Positions 2,129-50,809 are shown, counted from the first letter of the stretch. The stretch: 52,539 bases of DNA from Gemmatimonadota bacterium (GCA_031372565.1 JANMLN010000077.1:1-52539), one strand, 5' to 3'. Numbers and translations: made by a program. The notes: a model not told the origin generated them from the letters alone.

Positions 2129-3466
2129 ATGACGGACCGCCCGCTCTCGCGCCGCAACTTCGTCGGTGACATCATGGTCGCCGGTGCGGCCTTCTCGATC
2201 GTGCCGCGCCATGTGCTGGGCCGCGGCTTTCGCGCACCCAGCGACACGCTCAACGTTGCCTGCATCGGCGTGGGCGGCATGGGCGGCAGCGATGTGCGCG
2301 GCATGAGCGAGCACAACCTCGTCGCCTTTGCCGACGTGGACTGGGTCAGCGCAGAACGATCGTTCCTGGCATATCCCAAGGCCAAGCGGTACAAGGACTG
2401 GCGCGAGATGCTCGACAAGGAGCAGAAGTCGATCGACGCCGTGACCGTCAGCACCCCCGATCACACGCACGCGGCCGCCGGCATGGCCGCCCTCAAGCTC
2501 GGCAAGCACACCTACGTCCAGAAGCCGCTCGCGCGGACACTGGGCGAGATCCGTGCGCTGAAGGCCGAGGCCGCGCGTCGCCCGAAGCAGGCCACGCAGA
2601 TGGGCAATCAGGGACATGCCGGCGAGGGCATTCGACAGATCCGCGAGTGGGTCGAGGCTGGCGCCATCGGGACGGTGCGCGAAGTGCGGTGCTGGACCAA
2701 CCGGCCGATCTGGCCGCAGGGCATGCGCCGCCCGACCGACGCGCACAATGTGCCGCCCACGCTCGACTGGAACCTCTGGCTCGGACCGGTGGCCGACCGA
2801 CCGTACCATCCGTCGTACGCACCGTTCAACTGGCGCGGCTGGTGGGACTTCGGGACCGGCGCCATGGGCGACATGGCCTGTCACATCATGGACGCCGCGT
2901 TCTGGGTGAACGACCTGCGCTATCCCACGCGCATCGTGCCGGAGAGCACCACGCTGTTCGCCGAAACGGCCCCCAAGGCGTCGCGCATCACGTACGAGTT
3001 CGCCGCGCGCAACGGTCGACCGCCGCTCCTGGTCACCTGGCGCGACGGGTCGATCTATCCGCCTCGGCCGCAGGACTGGCCCGATGCCAAGGCGTGGCCG
3101 TTCGACGACAGCGGACAGCTCTGGATCGGCGACAAGGGGACGCTCATTGCCGGCACCTACGGCGAGAACCCGCGCCTGTCGAACGATGAGGCGCACAAGG
3201 CACTGCTCGCCAACAAGCCCGCCGAGAAGTACCCGCGCGTGCGGGGGGTGTACGGGGAGTGGATTGATGCGATCAAGGGTGGCACGCAGCCCGGGTCAAG
3301 CTTCGCCAGCTACGCCGGGCCCCTGACGGAGATGATTGCGCTCGGGAACCTCGCCGTCCGGACGGGACGAACGCTCGAGCTCGATCCGGAATCCGGCGCG
3401 ATCACGAACACCACGGTGCCGTCGGAGTTCATCATGCCGACGTATCGGCCGGGCTGGGCGTTGTAG
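2129..3466 (+). CDS. Gfo/Idh/MocA family oxidoreductase, Tat-exported
   Basis: SRRNF Tat motif, IGVGGMG, STPDHTH, YVQKP, FGTGAMGDMACH; GAGGAG RBS. Confidence 0.92.
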   Translation: MTDRPLSRRNFVGDIMVAGAAFSIVPRHVLGRGFRAPSDTLNVACIGVGGMGGSDVRGMSEHNLVAFADVDWVSAERSFLAYPKAKRYKDWREMLDKEQKSIDAVTVSTPDHTHAAAGMAALKLGKHTYVQKPLARTLGEIRALKAEAARRPKQATQMGNQGHAGEGIRQIREWVEAGAIGTVREVRCWTNRPIWPQGMRRPTDAHNVPPTLDWNLWLGPVADRPYHPSYAPFNWRGWWDFGTGAMGDMACHIMDAAFWVNDLRYPTRIVPESTTLFAETAPKASRITYEFAARNGRPPLLVTWRDGSIYPPRPQDWPDAKAWPFDDSGQLWIGDKGTLIAGTYGENPRLSNDEAHKALLANKPAEKYPRVRGVYGEWIDAIKGGTQPGSSFASYAGPLTEMIALGNLAVRTGRTLELDPESGAITNTTVPSEFIMPTYRPGWAL

Positions 3467-3473
3467 TGTGAGC

Positions 3474-5402
3474 ATGCGGCACTCCGCGAAGCTGCGCGCC
3501 GTTGCGCTCGCCCCCCTCCTCAGCGAGCGGTTCAGCGTGGTGCGCGAGCTTGGCGGCAGTGCGGCGGCCACGGTGCTGCTGGCCATGGACCGGCACCTGG
3601 GACGCGAAGTCGCCGTCAAGGTGTTCGAGCCCGACACCGGGTCCGCCAGCCGACAGCGATTCGACCGCGAGATCCTGCTGACGTCGCGTCTGCGCCATCC
3701 GCTCGTCGTTCCGGTCATCGATCATGGCACCATCGCGAACCATCCGTTCTACGTGATGCCGTTCGTCGCCGACGAGACGCTCCGGGTCGCACTCCATCGC
3801 GCGGAGCGCTACGAGGTCGCGGAGGCGGTGCGCATCGCGCTGGACCTGACCGAGGCACTGGCGTTTGCGCACGCGGCGGGGGTCATTCATCGGGACGTGA
3901 AGCCGGAGAACGTGTTCACCGGTGTGTCGCACACGCAGCTCACCGACTTCGGCATTGCCACGGCCATCGGTTCGTCGGAGGGGATGCGGCTGACCGAGAG
4001 TGGCGTCGTGCACGGCACCGCGATGTACATGAGCCCCGAGCAGGCGATGGGCCGACACGACCTGGACGGCCGCTGCGACCTGTATGCGCTCGGGTGCGTG
4101 CTCTGGGAACTTCTGGCGGGTGCGCCGCCATATCGCCACCCCAACATCATGCAGTTGGTGTCGATGCACCTGCAGGCCCCGATTCCCGACTTGCTGGCAG
4201 TCGCTCCCGACGCGCCACGCGCACTGGTCAAGCTGATGATCATGCTGCTCGCCAAGTCGCGCGACGACCGACCCGCGACGGCCGCCGAGGTGCATGAGCA
4301 GTTGCTCGCGATCCGTCGCGAGGTGACGGGCCAGCTCTCGGTCCCGACCATGACACCCACGCCGCTCGGCGTCGACGCGGTGACGCCGGCGATGATGGCA
4401 ACGCGCCAGGGACGCAGCCTCCTCGCGCGGGGCCTGGCCGGCGGCGCCGGGGCGGTCGATGCATTGCGCGTGGCCCGCACCTACTTCGAACGTGCGCTGG
4501 CGCTGGACGACGATCACCAATCCGCGCGCCTGGGGCTGGCCGAGGTGATTCAGGCGCTGGGGGTCGCTGGCGTGGACAATCCCGAGCAGTCGCGCCGCGA
4601 GTCGGCGGCGCTGCGCATGAGCGTCGTCCAGCGCGCGAGCCCGTCGGCCGAGGTCCTCACCGTGTTGGCCGAGACGTTGCTCTACTGGGAAGACGACATC
4701 GCGGCGGCTGGACGAAACCTCGCGAGGGCGCTCGCCATCGATCCCCAGCATCCGGGCGCCCTGCGGCTGCACGGGATCTGGCTCAAGATGATGGGTCGGT
4801 CGGAAGAGGCGGCGCAGCACCTGCGTGCGGCCGTGCTCCTGCACCCGCGCGACGTCGACATGCATCTCGCATTGGCCGACGCGCTGAGTGCCCTCGGCCG
4901 CGACCTTGAAGCACTGCGCGAGCTGCAGATGGCGCGGCGTCCTGATCCGCGACATGCCGGCGCGCTGGAGCGGACCGCGCGCGCGGCACATCGCGTCGGG
5001 CTCGTGGCCCAGGCGATCGAGGCCTACCGGGGGTGGCTGATGCAGCGGGGACCCGCCACCCGCGTGGCCGCGTTCGATGCCGACGTGAAGTCGCGTGGTT
5101 GGACGGACGCACGACGAGCCGATCTCAAGCGCGAGCTCGACGGCCTGATGCGCCGTGCTGCGGCGGAAGATCCGTTCATGCCTCGGGGCTCGCACCGCCA
5201 GGTCGCGGATGATCTGGTCGTGGTCCTGGCCGACCTCGGCCTCTGGACCGAGGCGATGGATTGCCTGATCGAGGGCGCGCGACGCCGGCCGGCGCGACTG
5301 CGACTGGCGTTGACCGACCTTCCCATGGACCGACGCGGGCTCGCCAGCGACCCGCGCTACGCCCCACTGCTCCGCGACGCGGGGCTCGAGGAACTCACAT
5401 GA
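3474..5402 (+). CDS. Hanks-type Ser/Thr protein kinase with C-terminal TPR repeats
   Basis: VAVK, HRDVKPEN, DFG, GTAMYMSPEQ, DLYALG; TPR-like helices (ALAIDPQH, AVLLHPRD). Confidence 0.88.
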   Translation: MRHSAKLRAVALAPLLSERFSVVRELGGSAAATVLLAMDRHLGREVAVKVFEPDTGSASRQRFDREILLTSRLRHPLVVPVIDHGTIANHPFYVMPFVADETLRVALHRAERYEVAEAVRIALDLTEALAFAHAAGVIHRDVKPENVFTGVSHTQLTDFGIATAIGSSEGMRLTESGVVHGTAMYMSPEQAMGRHDLDGRCDLYALGCVLWELLAGAPPYRHPNIMQLVSMHLQAPIPDLLAVAPDAPRALVKLMIMLLAKSRDDRPATAAEVHEQLLAIRREVTGQLSVPTMTPTPLGVDAVTPAMMATRQGRSLLARGLAGGAGAVDALRVARTYFERALALDDDHQSARLGLAEVIQALGVAGVDNPEQSRRESAALRMSVVQRASPSAEVLTVLAETLLYWEDDIAAAGRNLARALAIDPQHPGALRLHGIWLKMMGRSEEAAQHLRAAVLLHPRDVDMHLALADALSALGRDLEALRELQMARRPDPRHAGALERTARAAHRVGLVAQAIEAYRGWLMQRGPATRVAAFDADVKSRGWTDARRADLKRELDGLMRRAAAEDPFMPRGSHRQVADDLVVVLADLGLWTEAMDCLIEGARRRPARLRLALTDLPMDRRGLASDPRYAPLLRDAGLEELT

Positions 5403-43741: not shown

Positions 43742-43784
43742 GACGTCCTGCGCGACCGCCGAGCGCTAGCTTGTGTGGACGCCC

Positions 43785-44966
43785 ATGCCTACTCATCGCT
43801 TCGACGCCTTCGCTGTCACCGCTCCCGGCCTCTCGCCTCTCTGTGCCGCGGAGCTGCGTGCCATCGGCATGCGCCCCACCAGTGAAGACCCCGCCGGCGT
43901 CGGTTTCAGCGCCGATGCCGCGCACCTCATCCGCGCCAACCTCTGGCTTCGCACGCCAAGCCGGGTGATTGTCCGGATCGCGCAGTTCAAGGCCACCACG
44001 TTCAAGGACCTGCAGCTCACCGCCGGCAACATCCAGTGGGAGCAGGTCATCCAGAAGGGGCAGGCCGTCGCACTGCGCGTGACCTGCAAGAAGTCGAAGC
44101 TCATCCATTCGGGCGCCGTGGCACAGCGCGTGGGCGACGCGATTACCGCCGCCACCGGCTCGGCCATTGTGCGCGCGACGGGCGTGGAGGACGCCGATGA
44201 TGACGATGGTGCCGAAGCGGCGCCCGCCGTACCACCGCAGCTGATCATCGTGCGCTTCGACCGGGACGTCTGCACCATCAGCGCCGACAGCTCGGGCGAA
44301 TTGCTGCACCGCCGTGGGTATCGCCAGATGCTCGCCAAGGCGCCGATGCGCGAAACCCTCGCCGCGGGCCTCCTGCTCTCGGCCGGCTACACCGGCGCGG
44401 AACCGCTCATCGATCCGATGTGCGGCAGTGGCACCATCGCGATCGAGGCGGCGCTGATCGCGCGCAACATCGCGCCGGGCCTCCATCGCTCCTTTGCCTG
44501 CACCACCTGGGGGCAGGTGGGCGCGACGGTCGATGCCGCCGAGCGCCAGCGGGCGCGTGGGCAGGTCAAGGCGGCGGCGAGCGCGCCGATCATCGGCACC
44601 GACCGGGACGCGGGGGCCATCGTGGCGTCCAACGCGAACGCGGAGCGCGCCGGCGTGGCCGCAGACATCCAGTTCGCCGTCCGGGCGCTCTCGGCGCTCG
44701 AGGCGCCCACGTCACCTGGCGGGCTGCTCGCCACCAACCCGCCGTATGGCGCACGAGTCGGCGCCACACGCGACCTGCGCGATCTCTACGCGCGCGTTGG
44801 CCAGGTTGCTCGCACGCTGCTGCCGGGCTGGCGCGTGGCGATGGTGAGTGCCGACCGCGAACTCGAACGCGCCACCGATCTGGCGCTCGAGGAGAAGGTC
44901 CGCACCTCCAACGGTGGGATCCCGGTGCGGTTCATGGTGGCCGCCGTGCCTGCGCTTTCGGACTGA
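43785..44966 (+). CDS. THUMP-domain class I SAM RNA methyltransferase (RlmL-like)
   Basis: ANLWLR, DSSG.LLHRRGYR, APMRETLAA, DPMCGSGT, TNPPYG. Confidence 0.9.
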   Translation: MPTHRFDAFAVTAPGLSPLCAAELRAIGMRPTSEDPAGVGFSADAAHLIRANLWLRTPSRVIVRIAQFKATTFKDLQLTAGNIQWEQVIQKGQAVALRVTCKKSKLIHSGAVAQRVGDAITAATGSAIVRATGVEDADDDDGAEAAPAVPPQLIIVRFDRDVCTISADSSGELLHRRGYRQMLAKAPMRETLAAGLLLSAGYTGAEPLIDPMCGSGTIAIEAALIARNIAPGLHRSFACTTWGQVGATVDAAERQRARGQVKAAASAPIIGTDRDAGAIVASNANAERAGVAADIQFAVRALSALEAPTSPGGLLATNPPYGARVGATRDLRDLYARVGQVARTLLPGWRVAMVSADRELERATDLALEEKVRTSNGGIPVRFMVAAVPALSD

Positions 44967-45002
44967 CATACACCGGGCGTGCGGCCGGTGTATGTCAGTC
45001 CG
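44959..45002. terminator. Perfect 18-bp stem-loop overlapping the methyltransferase stop codon
   Basis: CGGACTGACATACACCGG-8 nt-CCGGTGTATGTCAGTCCG; no U-tract, so terminator function is uncertain. Confidence 0.5.
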
Positions 45003-45055: not shown

Positions 45056-45580
45056 ATGCTCGACCTCTTCGGTACCTCGCACCCGCCGCATGACGTGCCG
45101 GCTCCCGTCGGCGCACCGCGTGTCGTGAGCGTCAATGTGTCGCCGGGCGGCGTCCCCAAACGTCCGGTGTCGCAGGCCTGGATTGGGACCAAGGGAGTCG
45201 AAGGCGACGCGCAGCGCGACCTGCGCTTCCACGGCGGACCGGAGCGCGCGGTGTGCCTGCTCGGCCTGGAGCTGATCGAGGCGCTGCGCGCCGAGGGCCA
45301 TTCGATCAGCCCTGGCAGTTCGGGCGAGAACCTGACGATCGCCGGGGTGGATTGGCGCGCACTGGTGCCCGGAGCGGTGCTCGAGGTCGGCGACGCGGAG
45401 CTCGAGATCGCGAGCTACACGGCCCCGTGCAAGACGATCAAGGGCTCGTTCGCAAAGGGTGACTTCAAGCGGCTGTCGCAGAAGGTGCACCCGGGGTGGA
45501 GCCGGTTGTACGCACGGGTGCTACGCGAGGGGTCCGTGAAGGCGGGCGATACGGTTCGGGTCGGGCGTGACTCGATGTGA
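45056..45580 (+). CDS. MOSC domain protein (YiiM-like)
   Basis: GGVPK, HGGPERAV, GENLT, PCKTI, YARVLREGSV..GD. Confidence 0.9.
   Translation: MLDLFGTSHPPHDVPAPVGAPRVVSVNVSPGGVPKRPVSQAWIGTKGVEGDAQRDLRFHGGPERAVCLLGLELIEALRAEGHSISPGSSGENLTIAGVDWRALVPGAVLEVGDAELEIASYTAPCKTIKGSFAKGDFKRLSQKVHPGWSRLYARVLREGSVKAGDTVRVGRDSM
45452..45580 (+). repeat. Copy A of 129-bp direct repeat (MOSC gene 3' end)
   Basis: Aligns to 49310-49437 with 13 differences by manual count. Confidence 0.92.
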
Positions 45581-45588
45581 GTACACAC

Positions 45589-45608
45589 GGGATAGGAATC
45601 TCGATCGG
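45589..45608 (-). other. oriIS-like terminus
   Basis: Minus strand CCGATCGAGATTCCTATCCC, 23 bp after the stop of the transposase tail; IS91/ISCR oriIS ends carry a TTCCTAT core. Confidence 0.6.
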
Positions 45609-45631
45609 GGTCGGTCGAGTATGCGGCGCAC

Positions 45632-45764
45632 TCATCGGGGAGTCGGGGCCTCGGCGAACGGGCGTGGAGCGCACGCGGGGCCCCCGCTCGCGGGGGCCCG
45701 CGTCGATGGCGGGCTCCGCGGCCCGGCGTGCACCTCACATGAGGCGCGGGTCCGCAGGTGGGTG
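45632..45764 (-). pseudogene. IS91/ISCR-like transposase, extreme C-terminal tail
   Basis: THLRTRA...GPRSPPSTRAP...PTPR*; continues the relic at 49069-49313, which ends LLTHLRTRA. Confidence 0.65.
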
Positions 45765-45891
45765 CGTGCTGTCGCGTGCGGGAAGTGCAGTGCCGCGATA
45801 GGTTCGACGCACGACCTACTGCGCGCGGCGGGTCGTCTGGGCCTCGTGCACGTTTCGCCGCCGCTGCCCACCCCTCACGCGTGAGGCTCCA

Positions 45892-46293
45892 GTGGCACAG
45901 ATCACCCGCCCCGTGCTCGTCATCTCCGGTCGCGGCGCGAATCGCCGACTCGACGTCACGCTCCACGTGGTGCTCGACGCCGATGACCGGCTGCCGACGG
46001 CGAAGCGCGGTGGCGCGTTGGCGGTGGCCGCCGAGATCCGGGAGCACGACCGCGGCGGTGCGTGGATTCGGCGGCCGATCTTCACGTTCGAGGATGTCAC
46101 GCTGCAGGGGGGTGACTTCAACGGCGATCGCATGACCGACGTCGCCTTGACCACGCGCCTCGCTCGTCGCGACCTGAATGAGGACCTCGTGGGGCGCGAC
46201 GAGGTCATCGCCCAGGTGTGGCTCATCGACCTGCGCGGTCGCCGTCCGCGCGAGATCGACAGCATGGCGTCGTGGCCCGTGCGGGTCGTCTAG
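45892..46293 (+). CDS. Hypothetical protein (cargo)
   Basis: GAGG 7 nt before GTG, protein-like composition, converges on a short hairpin with the next gene. Confidence 0.55.
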   Translation: MAQITRPVLVISGRGANRRLDVTLHVVLDADDRLPTAKRGGALAVAAEIREHDRGGAWIRRPIFTFEDVTLQGGDFNGDRMTDVALTTRLARRDLNEDLVGRDEVIAQVWLIDLRGRRPREIDSMASWPVRVV

Positions 46294-46309
46294 GAGTCGG
46301 CCTTGCTCC

Positions 46310-47870
46310 CTACGGTCCCACCTTCTTGCGGAGTTCGTCGAAGAAGTTGGTGATCACGAGCAGGGGCAGCGTGCCCGGGCGGTCCACGTGCTTGACCAGC
46401 AGGAACGGGTTGCCGTCGGACGCAGCGTCGAAGCCGAGGGCAGCGGGATAGGCGCCGTCGAAGAGCTTGTGTGGCTTCCCGACTTGGCCGGCGGCGAGGT
46501 CCACGTCCACGGCGAACACCGCGGTGCCGCGCCGGAATACCAGTTCGCGACCGCCTCGGGTCCAGCGCGGCCCCCAGTCCGCACTGTCGCCGGCCGTCAC
46601 CTGTATGACACCTGGCGTGCCGTCGGACCGGTACAAACGAACTGAGTTTCCCCCTGGCGCAGTCCCCGGGCCGACGACCGCGAGCCATCGCCCATCCGGG
46701 GAGAACACTCCCGCGCTCAGGAAGATGCTGGTATCGCCGATGGCCCGGCCCGGCCCCGATCCCGCGATTAGCGCCACGCGGACCCTGCTGCCGAAAATCC
46801 CCGGGCTGTAGTACGCGACTTCGGTGCCGTCAGGGGACAGCGACACCGGCAACTTGTCGGCAGTGTTCGAGACAACGGCCGTCGGTTTGCCGCTACCGTC
46901 AAGCGCCATACGGTAGATGTCGTACGAGGGCGTCTCGTTCGTAAAGACGACCTCGCGACCGTCCGGCGCCCACACGCCGTTTAAGGCGGAGGCCGTGGCG
47001 CGCGTGACCTGCGTCAGCAGCTCGCGCTGCAGGTCGTACATCCTCAGGTTGCGGACGGTGCCATCGGCGCCGACCGTGACGAGGATGCGACTCTGATCCG
47101 GCGACATGCGCGGCGTGCGAAACGCGCCCGTCGACGGAATCGCGGGCGACTCCTTGCCGTCTCGGGTCACCCATACCACCCGGGCGTCCACTGCATACTC
47201 CGACTGGCGCAGCACGGCCAGCGTGCCGTTGTCGGAGATCGAGATCGCGGCCATCCCCTCGCTTGGCTGGCTCACGACGTCGTCGAGCGCGAGCACCGGT
47301 GCGCACTCGGGGCGCAGCTTCACCGGATCGAACCGGACGGCGAACAGCGCGTTGCCCCGGACGAAGAGCACGTGTCCGGATCTCGCATAGATCGGGCGGA
47401 AGCCGTTCTCAGCGATGACGACGCGTCGGCGGCTCTCGAGCTCAATCGCCTCCACGCGCGACGCCGGGCGGCGATAGCTGGTGAAGAGCACCGCGCGGCC
47501 ACCCGGCAGTGCCATGGGCCCCCAGTGGCCGATCTCGCCCGTCGCGGTGTCGGGCGTGGTCAGCAACTCGACCGGACCGCCAGCGCTCGGCACCCGCGCG
47601 AGGCCGTTGTTCCGCCCCTGGCAGACGATGGAGTTTGCGTCCAGCCAATCGAGCCCGGGACCACACTGGCCCACCTCACTCGACGCGCCTCCCTCGATCG
47701 GGATCTTCCGAACGGACCCCGCCTGAAAGCACGCCAGCCACCGACCGTCCGGAGAAACCTTCACGGCCGCGTTCTTGACGCCGGGCAGCACGCTCGGCGC
47801 GAGCGAGGCCAAGTCGCGAATGTTCAGTCCGGCGCTTCCGCTCTGCATGACCTGGCGGCCATCGCGCGAG
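46310..47870 (-). pseudogene. 5'-truncated PD40/TolB-like beta-propeller region of a kinase-propeller protein
   Basis: Repeated SPDG/APDG blades; C-terminal LLVITNFFDELR; no kinase domain, signal peptide or convincing start; 5' boundary approximate. Confidence 0.7.
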
Positions 47871-48140
47871 TGCGAGTCGGCGGCGCCTGAGCTCCGCACG
47901 CAGCGCATGACCGACCTCTCACAGGAAGGGGCGGTTCCACGCGCCCAGCCTCACCGCAAAACCGGATCGCTTCCGTTGACTGGTCTCGACGCAGCGGTGC
48001 ATCGCCCGGTTTGCCGTGTCGCCGGTGACGAGGCGCGGACGGAACGCGGCGTACGTGCCGTCCGAGCGCACCGCAGTCTGGGCGATGGAAGGCCGTGGCC
48101 GTGGGATCGGCCGCATGCTGAACACCGCTGCGCTGGCCTG

Positions 48141-48160
48141 TTGTCGGTTCGGCTCGACAA
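48141..48160. promoter_or_regulatory. Putative enhancer-binding-protein site TTGTCG-N8-CGACAA
   Basis: Inverted repeat of TGT-N12-ACA type about 115 bp upstream of a sigma54 site. Confidence 0.5.
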
Positions 48161-48275
48161 GTGTTTGCGGTACGGGCGCCACACCGCATGTTTACCGCGT
48201 TGAGAGTCCCGCGGCGTGTACGGCACAAGTTGTTGCCCCAGTTGAGTTTATCCGGACCGGCCGCCGGAGAGATCA

Positions 48276-48291
48276 TGGCATGAATCGTGCG
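48276..48291 (+). promoter_or_regulatory. Sigma54 -24/-12 promoter
   Basis: TGGCATGAATCGTGCG: GG-N10-GC, about 50 bp upstream of the PEP-CTERM gene. Confidence 0.7.
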
Positions 48292-48341
48292 TTAAGATCT
48301 TCAACACGTTCCACCTAAACCTCTCGAGCACAAGGATTCGC

Positions 48342-48983
48342 ATGCGCAGCATTGTGTCGGCCGCAGCAACCGCCCTGCTTCTCGCCTCCGCCGCGACCTC
48401 GGCCAGCGCCCAGACGATCGACCAGCAGTCGGTCGGCGGCGTTGGCTCGGGCAACTACTTCGGCGCGTGGCAATCTTGGACCTCGCAGACTTTCCGCCCA
48501 AGCGCGACCACGATGGTGGGCGGCGGCTTCAACGTTGTCAACGTCAGCGGCCAGGTCGCATCGGGGACCTTCACGATTCAGCTGTGGGACAACGTCTCGA
48601 GCGCGCCCGGCGCGAACCTGCTGGCCTCGGGGAGTGTCGCGTACAACCTTGGGATCGGCGCCCGGTCGATGGTGGATGTGTTCTGGTCGTCCACTGCGGT
48701 CACGGCCGGTGCACAGTACTTCATGCAGGGGATCGCGAGCGGACCGGAGACGCTGTACTCCTCGCTCACTTTCAACGCGTATGCGAATGGCCAAGCCGGG
48801 TACAACTACTCCACCAACCCGACGGCCCCGGTCAGCTGCTGCGGTTCCGCGTACGACCTCGATTTCCAGACGTTCTCCGACGGCAGCAACGTCGTTCCGG
48901 AGCCCTCAAGCATCGTGCTGATGGCAAGCGGCCTGCTCGCTGTCGGTGGCGTGGCCCGCCGCCGCCGAAAGCTGTCGGCCTGA
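48342..48983 (+). CDS. PEP-CTERM sorting domain protein
   Basis: Signal peptide (ASAQ), VVPEPSS + TM helix + RRRRK; AAGGA RBS. Confidence 0.93.
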   Translation: MRSIVSAAATALLLASAATSASAQTIDQQSVGGVGSGNYFGAWQSWTSQTFRPSATTMVGGGFNVVNVSGQVASGTFTIQLWDNVSSAPGANLLASGSVAYNLGIGARSMVDVFWSSTAVTAGAQYFMQGIASGPETLYSSLTFNAYANGQAGYNYSTNPTAPVSCCGSAYDLDFQTFSDGSNVVPEPSSIVLMASGLLAVGGVARRRRKLSA

Positions 48984-49010
48984 TCGGTCGCACATCCTGA
49001 CACGGAGATC

Positions 49011-49048
49011 AAGCAGGGCCTGCCAGCTGGCAGGCCCTGCTTGCTTTT
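49011..49048 (+). terminator. Rho-independent terminator
   Basis: 32-bp perfect palindrome AAGCAGGGCCTGCCAG/CTGGCAGGCCCTGCTT followed by GCTTTT. Confidence 0.75.
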
Positions 49049-49068
49049 CGGTCGACGCTTGGCGGCCA

Positions 49069-49313
49069 GGCACGGGTCCGGAGGTGGGTGAGGAGCTGGT
49101 CGATCACCGACGCCAAGGTCATGAACGCGACGATGCGCATCGCGCCGTGGCAGGTCGGACACGCGAGCGGGTCGACCGTCTCGGTGCGATGGCGTCGGAC
49201 CGGTACGTCACGGCCTTCGCGGCTCGGTCGAAAGTCGGCCGCTCAGGCGCCACGGGATTCCGCGCGCAGTACCGGGCGAGCCGCGTCGCGCACGCGCGAT
49301 CCTCTGCAGGCAA
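49069..49313 (-). pseudogene. IS91/ISCR-like (Y2-type) transposase relic with frameshift and internal deletion
   Basis: TRLARYCARNPVA.ER.TFD.....VTYRSD, frameshift, then TETVDPLACPTCHGAMRIVAFMT..SVIDQLLTHLRTRA. Confidence 0.75.
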
Positions 49314-49437
49314 AGGGTGACTTCAGGCGGCTGTCGAAGAAGGCGCACCCGGGGTGAACCAGTTGTACGCACCGGTGCGACGCGAGGGGTCCGTGAAGGC
49401 GGGCGATACGCTTCGGATCGAGCGTGACTAGATGGGA
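49310..49437 (+). repeat. Copy B (degenerate) of MOSC gene 3' end
   Basis: About 90% identical to 45452-45580; TGG>TGA nonsense change and a 1-nt deletion. Confidence 0.92.
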
Positions 49438-49549
49438 CTGTATATCGGCACAAATACAGGCAGCGAAATTGTGTTTAACTATGTAAACGATTCATTGATC
49501 ACCGTTTATCAACAATTGACTTCAGCAAATTTATACGCATATTTGCCGA

Positions 49550-50809
49550 ATGATCCCCGCAGACTTCGAGCCGCTCTTCCCGGATCCGTGGGCGCGGGGA
49601 CTCGCTGACCTCGCCCTCGACTTCGAGCGCGAAGCCGCTGCACTCGGCGCCCTCCTCCACCCCGACGTCGCCGACCAGGTCGCCGACCTCCTCCGCTTCG
49701 CGAACAGCTACTTCTCGAACAGCATCGACGGGAACGACATCACGCCGGCCGGGATCGAGGCCGCCATGACGCACGACTGGGCCCACGACCCGCACCGACG
49801 CGCCTGTCAGGAACAGGCCCGCGCCCACGTCGAGATCGAGCGGACCGCGGACGAATGGCTCGACGATGAGGCCACGCTGAACCCGCTGTCGGCGGATACC
49901 CTCCTCGAGCTCCACCGCGCCCTCCACGAGAACGTCCCGCCGTCTGAACGCTGGGTCGGGCATCCCGGCGGGACGCGTCGCGAGCGGATCGTCCCCGGAG
50001 CACTCCGCACCTTCGACGCGCAGGTCGGCCAGCATCAACCGCCACCGGCCGCGTCGATTGCGCCGTTGCTCGCCCGCGCCGCCGAGGCGTACGAGCCTGC
50101 CCGCCTCACCGGCCTCGATCGCGCGATGGCCTTCGCCGCCAGCCATCACCGACTGCTCTGGGTCCACCCCTTCGCTGACGGCAATGGTCTCGTCATGCGC
50201 CTCGCGTCGCGCCTTTACGCACGGGCACTCGGTATCGGCGGCACCAGACTCTGGACCCCGGCCCGCGGCCTGGCGCGCGCACGCGATCGCTACACGGCCG
50301 CGCTCGCCGAGGCAGACGTCCCGCCTCGCAACGAACGCGACGATCTCGACGAACGCGACGATCGCAGCGCGCTCTCGCGCGAAGGGCTCACCAACTTCAC
50401 GCGCTTCTTTCTGACGACCTGCCTGAACGAAGTGCGCTTCATGCGCAGCGTGCTCGCGCCCGACACGCTCGCCGCTCGACTGGAGGACTACGTCAGTCGG
50501 CGCGCGGCCGACGTGCTCCCAGGCGCACATGCGCCGCTCAGCAAGGCCGCGTCTCCGCTGCTGCGCCACTGTCTGCTCGGCGGGCGCGTACGGCGCGGCG
50601 ACATCGCCGCCATCACGGGACGCTCACTGCGCGCCGTGAGCACGATCGTTGGCCAGCTCCTCGACGAGGGACTGCTCGTGACCGACTCACGAAAGGGGCC
50701 AGTCCGACTGGGGCTCCCGCTGCACGCGCTGCGCTATCTGCTGCCGGACGTGTATCCCGAAGGCGCCGATCAGTGGTCCGCCAGCACGCCGTCCGACCAC
50801 GCGGCGTAA
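49550..50809 (+). CDS. Fic family protein with C-terminal winged-HTH-like region
   Basis: NSYFSNSIDG, HHRLLWVHPFADGNGLVMR, W...RGLAR....Y, L...LLDEGLL. Confidence 0.9.
   Translation: MIPADFEPLFPDPWARGLADLALDFEREAAALGALLHPDVADQVADLLRFANSYFSNSIDGNDITPAGIEAAMTHDWAHDPHRRACQEQARAHVEIERTADEWLDDEATLNPLSADTLLELHRALHENVPPSERWVGHPGGTRRERIVPGALRTFDAQVGQHQPPPAASIAPLLARAAEAYEPARLTGLDRAMAFAASHHRLLWVHPFADGNGLVMRLASRLYARALGIGGTRLWTPARGLARARDRYTAALAEADVPPRNERDDLDERDDRSALSREGLTNFTRFFLTTCLNEVRFMRSVLAPDTLAARLEDYVSRRAADVLPGAHAPLSKAASPLLRHCLLGGRVRRGDIAAITGRSLRAVSTIVGQLLDEGLLVTDSRKGPVRLGLPLHALRYLLPDVYPEGADQWSASTPSDHAA

Follow-up and report, generated by a model that had tools for sequence, protein, structure and literature searches.

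A MOSC-domain gene and a Fic-family gene are parted by an extra 3.86 kb of DNA in an uncultured Gemmatimonadota bacterium from sediment, and the question is what the DNA between them is and how it came to be there. The window is the whole stretch of 52,539 nucleotides analysed here (GCA_031372565.1, JANMLN010000077.1:1-52539), with all coordinates counted from its first letter, and it belongs to a fragmented metagenome assembly of 201 contigs that is 96% complete (G000, the own genome in what follows). The added DNA is probably the fossil of a rolling-circle insertion sequence (IS) of the IS91 family, lying between MOSC and Fic and enclosing 3.3 kb of passenger DNA, with entry of a circle at the MOSC gene as the likeliest way in. 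Along the + strand the order is RlmL, MOSC, IS end, transposase C-terminal tail (C-tail), three passengers, a hairpin, a transposase relic, a copy of the MOSC 3' end, an AT-rich leader and Fic, and the parts on which the argument turns are the following.

45056-45580, + strand: MOSC-domain gene, intact, 174 amino acids (aa), Pfam PF03473 at E 2e-22 over profile positions 1-120 of 120.
45452-45591, + strand: repeat B, the MOSC 3' end plus 11 bases, with ACGG at its end directly abutting the IS end.
45592-45764, - strand: IS91-family 3' end, made up of an oriIS-like end and the transposase C-tail (THLRTRA...), top strand ...GATTCCTATCCC.
45742-45764 and 49068-49090: 23-base direct repeat (codons THLRTRA), 21 of 23 bases identical, flanking the passengers.
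49068-49312, - strand: transposase relic, residues ~261-300 (Tyr motif RLARY) and ~384-420 (CPxCH...MRIVAF...THLRTRA) of 453.
49310-49448, + strand: repeat B', a decayed MOSC 3' end that runs into the native AT-rich Fic leader.
49550-50809, + strand: Fic/DOC-family gene, the native right neighbour of MOSC, outside the element, Pfam Fic at E 4e-12.
43773-44966, + strand: RlmL-like methyltransferase gene, upstream of MOSC.

The undisturbed arrangement is found in one of the relatives used for comparison, among them G002, G003 (same genus), G007 and G034. In G003 (contig C68) RlmL, MOSC and Fic are contiguous with ~145 bases between MOSC and Fic, a spacer that can be partly aligned with the stretch downstream of B' in the window, and MOSC orthologues adjoin RlmL in both G002 and G003. 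As MOSC and Fic are directly adjacent in this same-genus genome, the 3857 bases by which the two repeat copies are spaced, the 3.86 kb of added DNA, are an insertion. The leader that precedes Fic in the window has a GC content of 36%. A first-pass annotation of the window, made by a model from the sequence, had read the locus as a cargo-carrying IS91/ISCR-like element parked at the 3' end of MOSC, and its anatomy has held up well, with the intact MOSC gene, the oriIS-like end 8 bp beyond it, the transposase C-tail, the hypothetical gene, truncated propeller and complete PEP-CTERM unit (at 45892-48983), the transposase relic with its RLARY, CPTC and MRIVAF motifs and the degenerate copy of the MOSC 3' end all recovered by the searches described here; the empty MOSC site that it proposed looking for in relatives is seen in G003.

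The two transposase pieces are best recognised through other copies of the same IS. The right-hand relic (...ATRLARYCARNPVA...YRSD) matches IS91-like transposases of the own genome at tblastn E 2e-15, its peptide ...CPTCHGAMRIVAF... (VDPLACPTCHGAMRIVAF...THLRTRA) does so at E 3e-16, and the C-tail of the left-hand piece (THLRTRA...PPSTRAPAS) at E 1e-9. An intact 453-aa transposase from G007 serves as the reference for residue numbers; the left piece covers residues ~414-453 of it, and the right relic matches it at tblastn E 1.4e-9 and 2e-7. At the nucleotide level (blastn) the right relic is 88-89% identical to own-genome copies, and the 3' parts of such copies are 85-86% identical to 45641-45764 and 45587-45628. 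The two pieces overlap by the 23-base repeat, whose copies stand immediately on either side of the passenger DNA (45765-49067, 3303 bases). The passengers therefore interrupt the transposase gene and part its body from its C-tail. On their alignment to the reference, both pieces are one gene in one order, split at the THLRTRA codons by the passengers.

The right-hand relic is itself damaged, with ~85 residues gone between two VDPL-coding repeats and a frameshift at the same place. The site of this internal deletion (49178-49193) sits between direct repeats coding (T/E)VDPL, which is the look of a microhomology deletion. The element lacks the part of the transposase that carries the zinc and HUH domains (the first ~260 residues) as well as its own terminator end (terIS), with the relic breaking at ~residue 261 and joined directly to B' at 49309|49310; left-end alignments of two to four family copies gave no clean edge for the family terIS boundary. 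Lacking these residues and the terminator end, the element cannot move by itself, and the non-autonomous state that the first-pass annotation had proposed is borne out by a transposase that is frameshifted and split as well as shortened.

Pfam gave no match to the raw relic open reading frames (ORFs) at E<=0.1, with Y2_Tnp coming top at E 0.12 in a separate scan, and a scan of the own genome for Y2_Tnp passed over the window, so the IS91 identity has been established through members of the family. Other copies in the own genome match Pfam Y2_Tnp with a best E of 2.2e-28, and the intact transposases of G007 and G034 (453 and 452 aa) match both PF04986 Y2_Tnp (1.4e-29 and 4e-28) and PF14319 Zn_Tnp_IS91 (1.5e-17 and 6e-18). 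The 453-aa protein passes the NCBIfam model NF033538, 'IS91 family transposase', with 178 bits against a cut-off of 125, and fails the ISCR clade Ia model NF052416 with 160 bits against a cut-off of 925. The single-tyrosine motif RLARY aligns with the RLCRY of ISCR1 and ISVsa3 (ISCR2), with L272, R274 and Y275 invariant, and an alignment that takes in ISCR1, ISVsa3 and an ISCR-like transposase from a plasmid record has the HUH histidines in common together with R/K-L-x-R-Y, an R or K standing four residues before the tyrosine. IS91 proper has two tyrosines at this motif. The single ISCR-type tyrosine noted at first pass is thus present, and the suggested search with the relic peptides succeeded by tblastn to the IS91-type family and fell short when Pfam was run on the relics alone. 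From these comparisons the window element is an IS91/ISCR-type relic. The related IS element is ~1.8 kb long as judged by comparing copies, and the relatives of its transposase are almost all in Gemmatimonadaceae or Gemmatimonadales assemblies, a group to which the own genome probably belongs as well. No intact transposase was found in the own genome, all 13 matches there being partial or broken, with the best of them (contig C4) missing ~60 residues that include the C-terminal CxxC region.

The left boundary is provided by the origin end of the IS. The MOSC stop codon occupies 45578-45580, 8 bases separate it from GGGATAGGAATC, which begins at 45589, and the terminus of the element, abutting the MOSC side, falls at ~45589-45592. 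The same origin end (GATAGGAA.TTC.ATCGGGGT...) was found 10 times in the own genome, the DNA outside it being unrelated in each case, and downstream of the transposase in 3 relatives. Among 30 related transposase loci examined in other genomes, the family origin end TTCCTATCC, searched for as TTCCTAT[AC]C, lies 182-334 bases past the end of the transposase match in 17, at 1617 bases in one, and has no exact match in the remaining 12. As published (PMC13023784 and PMC8894482), the oriIS of ISCR1 (GTGGTTTATACTTCCTATACCC) and that of ISCR27 (GCGGTTGAACTTCCTATACC) end in ...CTTCCTATACC(C), with the oriIS of ISCR27 placed 236 bases past the stop codon.

The flanks of well-preserved copies diverge immediately after TTCCTATCCGT or TTCCTATCCCT, and in most related copies ACGG, AGGG or a similar tetranucleotide precedes GATAGGAA. 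In the window, GATAGG is preceded on the bottom strand by ACGG. Well-preserved relatives show either these four bases or AGGG, which read CCGT and CCCT on the top strand, and then divergent flanks, and the tetranucleotide varies among the decayed copies of the own genome; that of the window is neither GTTC nor CTTG. The window origin end contains a subterminal 8-bp hairpin, and no consensus fold of the origin end was obtained over 13 copies (RNAalifold, DNA parameters). By its likeness to these copies, the left end in the window is a genuine, family-typical IS91 origin end beside the MOSC stop.

Origin ends of the same orientation are frequently found in tandem in this IS family, 15-325 bases or a few kb apart (G000 C104:3798/4109; L064:7511/7601; L060:12406/12443; L051:5140/5465/8159), which suggests insertion beside resident copies or repeated partial products. 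At L059:7251-8574, a relative of the G007 locus, an otherwise intact transposase is broken at residue 416 by 1.3 kb that starts with an extra TATCCCTCCTATCCCT, repeating the terminus of the origin end, with the true end carrying two more TTCCTATCCCTC 34 bases apart. A hot-spot for insertion at residues 410-420, which this break had brought to mind, was rejected, as 126 tblastn segment ends from 81 loci (L051-L131) and the own genome showed no excess there, and the closeness of the L059 break to the split in the window is therefore taken as coincidence. Orphan or truncated origin ends also lie within ~170-350 bases of kinase-propeller genes at G000 C4:49586 and C101:72892, which may be chance, as that protein is matched over nearly its full length at least 17 times in the own genome.

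The whole unit is bracketed by a duplication of the MOSC 3' end. By BLAST, 45452-45580 and 49310-49437 are 89.9% identical over 129 bases, and in a pairwise alignment the duplication seems to extend 11 bases beyond the stop to the IS end, ~139 bases in all, the last 11 being weakly alignable. B' differs from B by 12 substitutions and a 1-base deletion and has an in-frame stop, and the longest perfect run shared by the two, again by pairwise alignment, is 31 bases. The left-hand copy stops at the origin end, and the right-hand copy adjoins the broken transposase (49309|49310). A repeat search of the locus found no inverted repeat pairing the two ends of the element, and a flanking repeat of 139 bases at 90% identity is not a target-site duplication, so that the locus has neither terminal inverted repeats nor a short target-site duplication, as is the case for IS91. 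The duplicated segment begins directly after GTTC (45448-45451) in MOSC, the classical target and cleavage tetranucleotide of IS801 and IS1294; this is probably chance, as 4 of the 256 tetranucleotides would qualify.

Within the passenger block (45765-49067, 3.3 kb) are three ORFs and some smaller features.

45797-45807, + strand: GATAGGTTCGA, which may be a second, degenerate start of an oriIS-like end, 33 bases into the block and oriented as the first.
45892-46293, + strand: passenger 1, a 133-aa orphan ORF with a weak FG-GAP-like stretch, Pfam FG-GAP at E 0.051.
46310-47908, - strand: passenger 2, a 5'-truncated Ser/Thr-kinase-propeller gene with Pfam PD40 and WD40-like matches.
48342-48983, + strand: passenger 3, a complete PEP-CTERM gene of 213 aa, Pfam PF07589 at E 1.3e-5, NCBIfam TIGR02595 at 25.1 bits (cut-off 16).
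49003-49050, + strand: terminator-like hairpin after the PEP-CTERM gene, with 24-base arms that are 88% complementary, followed by a T run.

The orphan ORF has GC contents of 0.75, 0.47 and 0.88 at the three codon positions, typical of real genes here, and no homologue in the 150 family genomes that were used for the passenger searches. The PEP-CTERM protein has an N-terminus that reads as signal-peptide-like in translation and only distant homologues (<=39%) in 3 of those 150 genomes; metagenome scans with the orphan ORF and with the PEP-CTERM protein returned no relative of either.

The propeller gene, an open ORF of 532 codons, is the 3' two-thirds of a kinase-propeller gene from which the kinase domain is gone, with degenerate linker remnants that may reach ~48200. 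It is 80% identical in amino acids to residues 277-794 of a full-length kinase-propeller (at least 795 aa) that stands in another context in G002 (contig C866), and 46317-47870 is 84% identical to G002 in nucleotides, against 70-81% for 10 syntenic segments of the same genomes, which gives a modest hint of transfer. The differences from G002 fall 84/62/137 at the three codon positions, a selection-like distribution, and the amidohydrolase downstream of the G002 propeller has no close orthologue in the own genome (best 34%). In the whole 52.5-kb window, only the motif GATAGGTTCGA fits GATAGG-N0-3-TTCRA, a pattern that was chosen post hoc and would be expected 0.01 times by chance. In relatives, IS91-like ends or relics also adjoin partial genes (L051:5852-6607; L055:1961-2557 and 3269-4003), which by their coverage of Pfam profiles are amidohydrolase, short-chain dehydrogenase and AMP-binding fragments and are reminiscent of captured fragments. 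Upstream of MOSC, a near-perfect palindrome with 21-base arms (44959-45002) spans the RlmL stop into the RlmL-MOSC spacer and looks terminator-like.

How these parts could have come together is suggested by what has been proposed for ISCR1. PMC13181058 gives one-ended transposition, no target duplication and a tetranucleotide beside oriIS as features of IS91, and PMC13023784 proposes that ISCR1, without terIS, forms circles by one-ended transposition that recombine homologously and so give a duplicated 3' conserved segment (3'-CS). In the present case a truncated copy without terIS may have lain beside the MOSC 3' end in an earlier host or a sister chromosome, replication from the origin end would have run through the element into the MOSC flank, and the product would have closed to a circle at ...ACGG|GATAGG. 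The circle would then have re-entered the chromosome by homologous recombination in the MOSC 3' end, for which the 31-base perfect run between B and B' could provide support, so that the 139 bases would be present twice, once intact and once decayed, comparable to ISCR1 and the duplicated 3'-CS. A duplication that spans from the broken transposase to the origin end fits a circle consisting of MOSC 3' end, origin, tail, passengers and relic after a single crossover in MOSC, and the suggestion at first pass that the flanking duplication came from ISCR-style circle integration agrees with the ISCR1 model in PMC13023784. The passengers would have entered the element through one or more illegitimate or template-switch joins, as is suggested by the truncated passenger gene and the 23-base duplication that flanks them. 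We hold the route as a whole, from truncated copy through one-ended transposition and circle to recombination at MOSC, with slightly less than even confidence.

A number of observations weigh against an IS91 fossil that arrived in this way. Classical ISCR capture would put the passengers beyond terIS, and here they occupy the interval from transposase body to origin end. The 23-base duplication is unexplained by any IS91 step, all three passenger ORFs are open whereas B' and the transposase relic are heavily decayed, which fits passengers that either arrived later or were kept by selection, and no donor, circle or second copy of the composite was seen. The 12 substitutions between B and B' fall 4/8/0 at positions 1/2/3 of the MOSC codons (the chance of zero at position 3 being ~0.008), and read on the opposite, transposase-sense strand they rank third > first > second, the pattern of a selected frame; zero at the third position is predicted by neither neutral decay nor the divergence of functional alleles. 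To these is added that three of the four key junctions (MOSC|IS, passenger|relic and relic|MOSC') are bridged by no listed contig with at least 31 bases on each side, in a check that used only Logan contigs, which break at every repeat and cannot show absence. The position of the passengers, the 23-base duplication and the intact passengers beside a decayed relic make a stepwise build-up in place a serious rival, one that is possible but on balance unlikely. An ordinary IS91 copy would have inserted 11 bases past the MOSC stop and decayed, and passengers would have been pasted in later, with template switching or illegitimate recombination giving the 23-base repeat, a separate replication-based event giving the 139-base duplication and removing the 5' half of the transposase, and the IS not being the carrier of the passengers at all. 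Short flanking duplications are typical of template-switch insertions, extra DNA between transposase and origin end is seen in only one of the 18 other loci where an origin end was found, so that 17 carry no passengers there, and the own genome has the look of a junkyard, with scattered IS91 relic pieces (27 merged intervals on 14 contigs) lying next to unrelated genes. What tells against such a build-up is that it needs three independent events with coinciding end points, the edges of the duplication falling exactly at the origin end and at the transposase break, and that the possible second origin-like motif at the left edge of the passenger block ties the block to an IS91-type end.

The unbridged junctions, and a fragmented assembly in which Logan contigs break at repeats, might also be thought to point to a chimeric contig joined through the IS and MOSC repeats, which we regard as extremely improbable. 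With identities of no more than 90% over 139 bases and 91% over 23 bases, the repeats are too diverged to have misled an assembler. Three runs of one study (X1, X2 and X3) hold 72-99% of the sampled words of the window, and their contigs cross the junction of tail and passengers without a mismatch, X1 being possibly the source of the assembly; depth is even over flanks and passengers in X1 (11, 9.2-9.4 and 9.3) and X2 (6.6, 5.2-5.4 and 4.7). The joint of an empty site was not found among the contig pieces listed. One contig of X2 joins 49151 to 45588, from within the transposase to the start of the origin end, at a depth of 14 against 5-7 for the genome, a joint that probably derives from a tandem or circular form of another IS copy in the community.

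The fossil, for which entry as a circle is the likeliest route, is to be distinguished from a still mobilisable, non-autonomous rolling-circle element that shuttles PEP-CTERM genes with a transposase supplied in trans, which is very improbable. It has in its favour a well-preserved origin end, intact family transposases in relatives, and an association within the own genome, where 3 of the 25 segments with a PEP-CTERM signal have an IS91 relic piece 77-151 bases away, 0.11 being expected (permutation P 1.5e-4 for 3, or 0.005 if they count as 2 loci). At C170:1661-5286 (L047) a PEP-CTERM lectin gene, a ferritin-like gene and another PEP-CTERM gene are interleaved with three IS91 relic pieces, and transposase residues ~62-122 and ~206-226 are parted by 2.1 kb with two genes, the ferritin-like and the PEP-CTERM lectin gene, making this a second split transposase in the genome.

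Against continued mobility stand the absence of terIS, the failure to find an intact transposase in a 96%-complete assembly, and the single occurrence of the composite, of which no second copy was found in the own genome, where the passenger DNA is unique, nor in 40 relatives, where the propeller gene alone of the passengers recurs and does so in a different context. Further, a profile built from the own-genome segments found no PEP-CTERM match within ~6 kb of related transposases at 75 loci (727 kb), where ~4 would be expected from its 27 matches in the 4.44-Mb own genome, and the two PEP-CTERM proteins beside relics are alike in their sorting signal only; a general link between IS91 and PEP-CTERM is therefore not accepted. 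The first-pass picture of an element that moves surface-protein genes is thus not supported, given one copy, a destroyed transposase, a missing terIS and no PEP-CTERM match at the 75 loci, and the genome-wide search for origin ends that it proposed did yield 10 places with unrelated DNA outside but no intact transposase. Today the element is immobile and carries two accessory genes that appear intact, and it could move only with a transposase supplied in trans by an intact relative.

A broader view, that this IS91 lineage habitually loads passengers between transposase and origin end, spreads as homology-homing circles that repair their source gene and has repeatedly taken up PEP-CTERM genes in the own genome, is very improbable; if true, such habitual uptake and homing circles would be a bacterial, non-resistance counterpart of the gene capture seen with ISCR1 and Helitrons. 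No paper was found on IS91 together with PEP-CTERM, and the titles or abstract beginnings of the literature on IS91 and Gemmatimonads contained no prior description.

Set beside known systems, the locus resembles Helitrons by analogy, in its HUH rolling-circle chemistry, asymmetric ends, lack of a target duplication and captured gene fragments, and to this extent the Helitron-like capture suggested at first pass is apt. It goes no further than analogy, as the only domains that Pfam finds in the intact relatives are Y2_Tnp and Zn_Tnp_IS91, with no helicase, the lineage is that of bacterial IS91, and repeated amplification of captured fragments, as in Helitrons, is not in evidence here. With IS91, IS801 and IS1294 the family shares intact relatives that pass the curated IS91 model, a length of ~1.8 kb, ends without terminal inverted repeats, a tetranucleotide abutting the origin end that appears conserved in the better-preserved copies, and the commonness of tandem origin ends and truncated derivatives. 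It differs from IS91 in having one tyrosine in place of two, and from all three in a tetranucleotide that is CCGT or CCCT (top strand, better-preserved copies), not the CTTG or GTTC given for them in PMC13181058.

The closest likeness is to ISCR1 in complex class 1 integrons. The family can be aligned with it at the single tyrosine (RLxRY) and at the HUH histidines, an origin end ...TTCCTAT(A/C)CC is met some hundreds of bases past the gene, the terminator end is lost with the broken 5' side fused to host DNA, and a direct duplication of host DNA brackets the whole unit, comparable to the 3'-CS as described in PMC13023784. The differences are that the window family falls outside the ISCR clade Ia model (160 against 925 bits), that its transposase has 453 and not 513 aa, the three ISCR-type sequences in the alignment all having ~50 extra residues in one stretch, and is ~30-35% identical to them, that the window transposase is far more decayed, and that the passengers lie between transposase body and origin end, not after the origin end. 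In place of resistance genes they comprise an orphan ORF, the truncated kinase-propeller gene and a gene for a PEP-CTERM protein, and the host is an uncultured sediment bacterium.

The gene capture is thus of a known kind and calls for no new mechanism, and what may puzzle specialists, if anything, is the nesting of the 23- and 139-base duplications and the odd pattern of substitutions in B'. Most of what is known of IS91/ISCR elements comes from resistance plasmids in clinical bacteria. The locus puts on record a lineage of IS91 that is abundant in Gemmatimonadaceae-type assemblies and resembles ISCR in its tyrosine motif and origin end, and it combines an ISCR-like anatomy (lost terminator end, duplicated host DNA and passengers) with ordinary accessory genes in an uncultured sediment bacterium, a natural example of IS91-type elements reshaping genomes outside the clinic.

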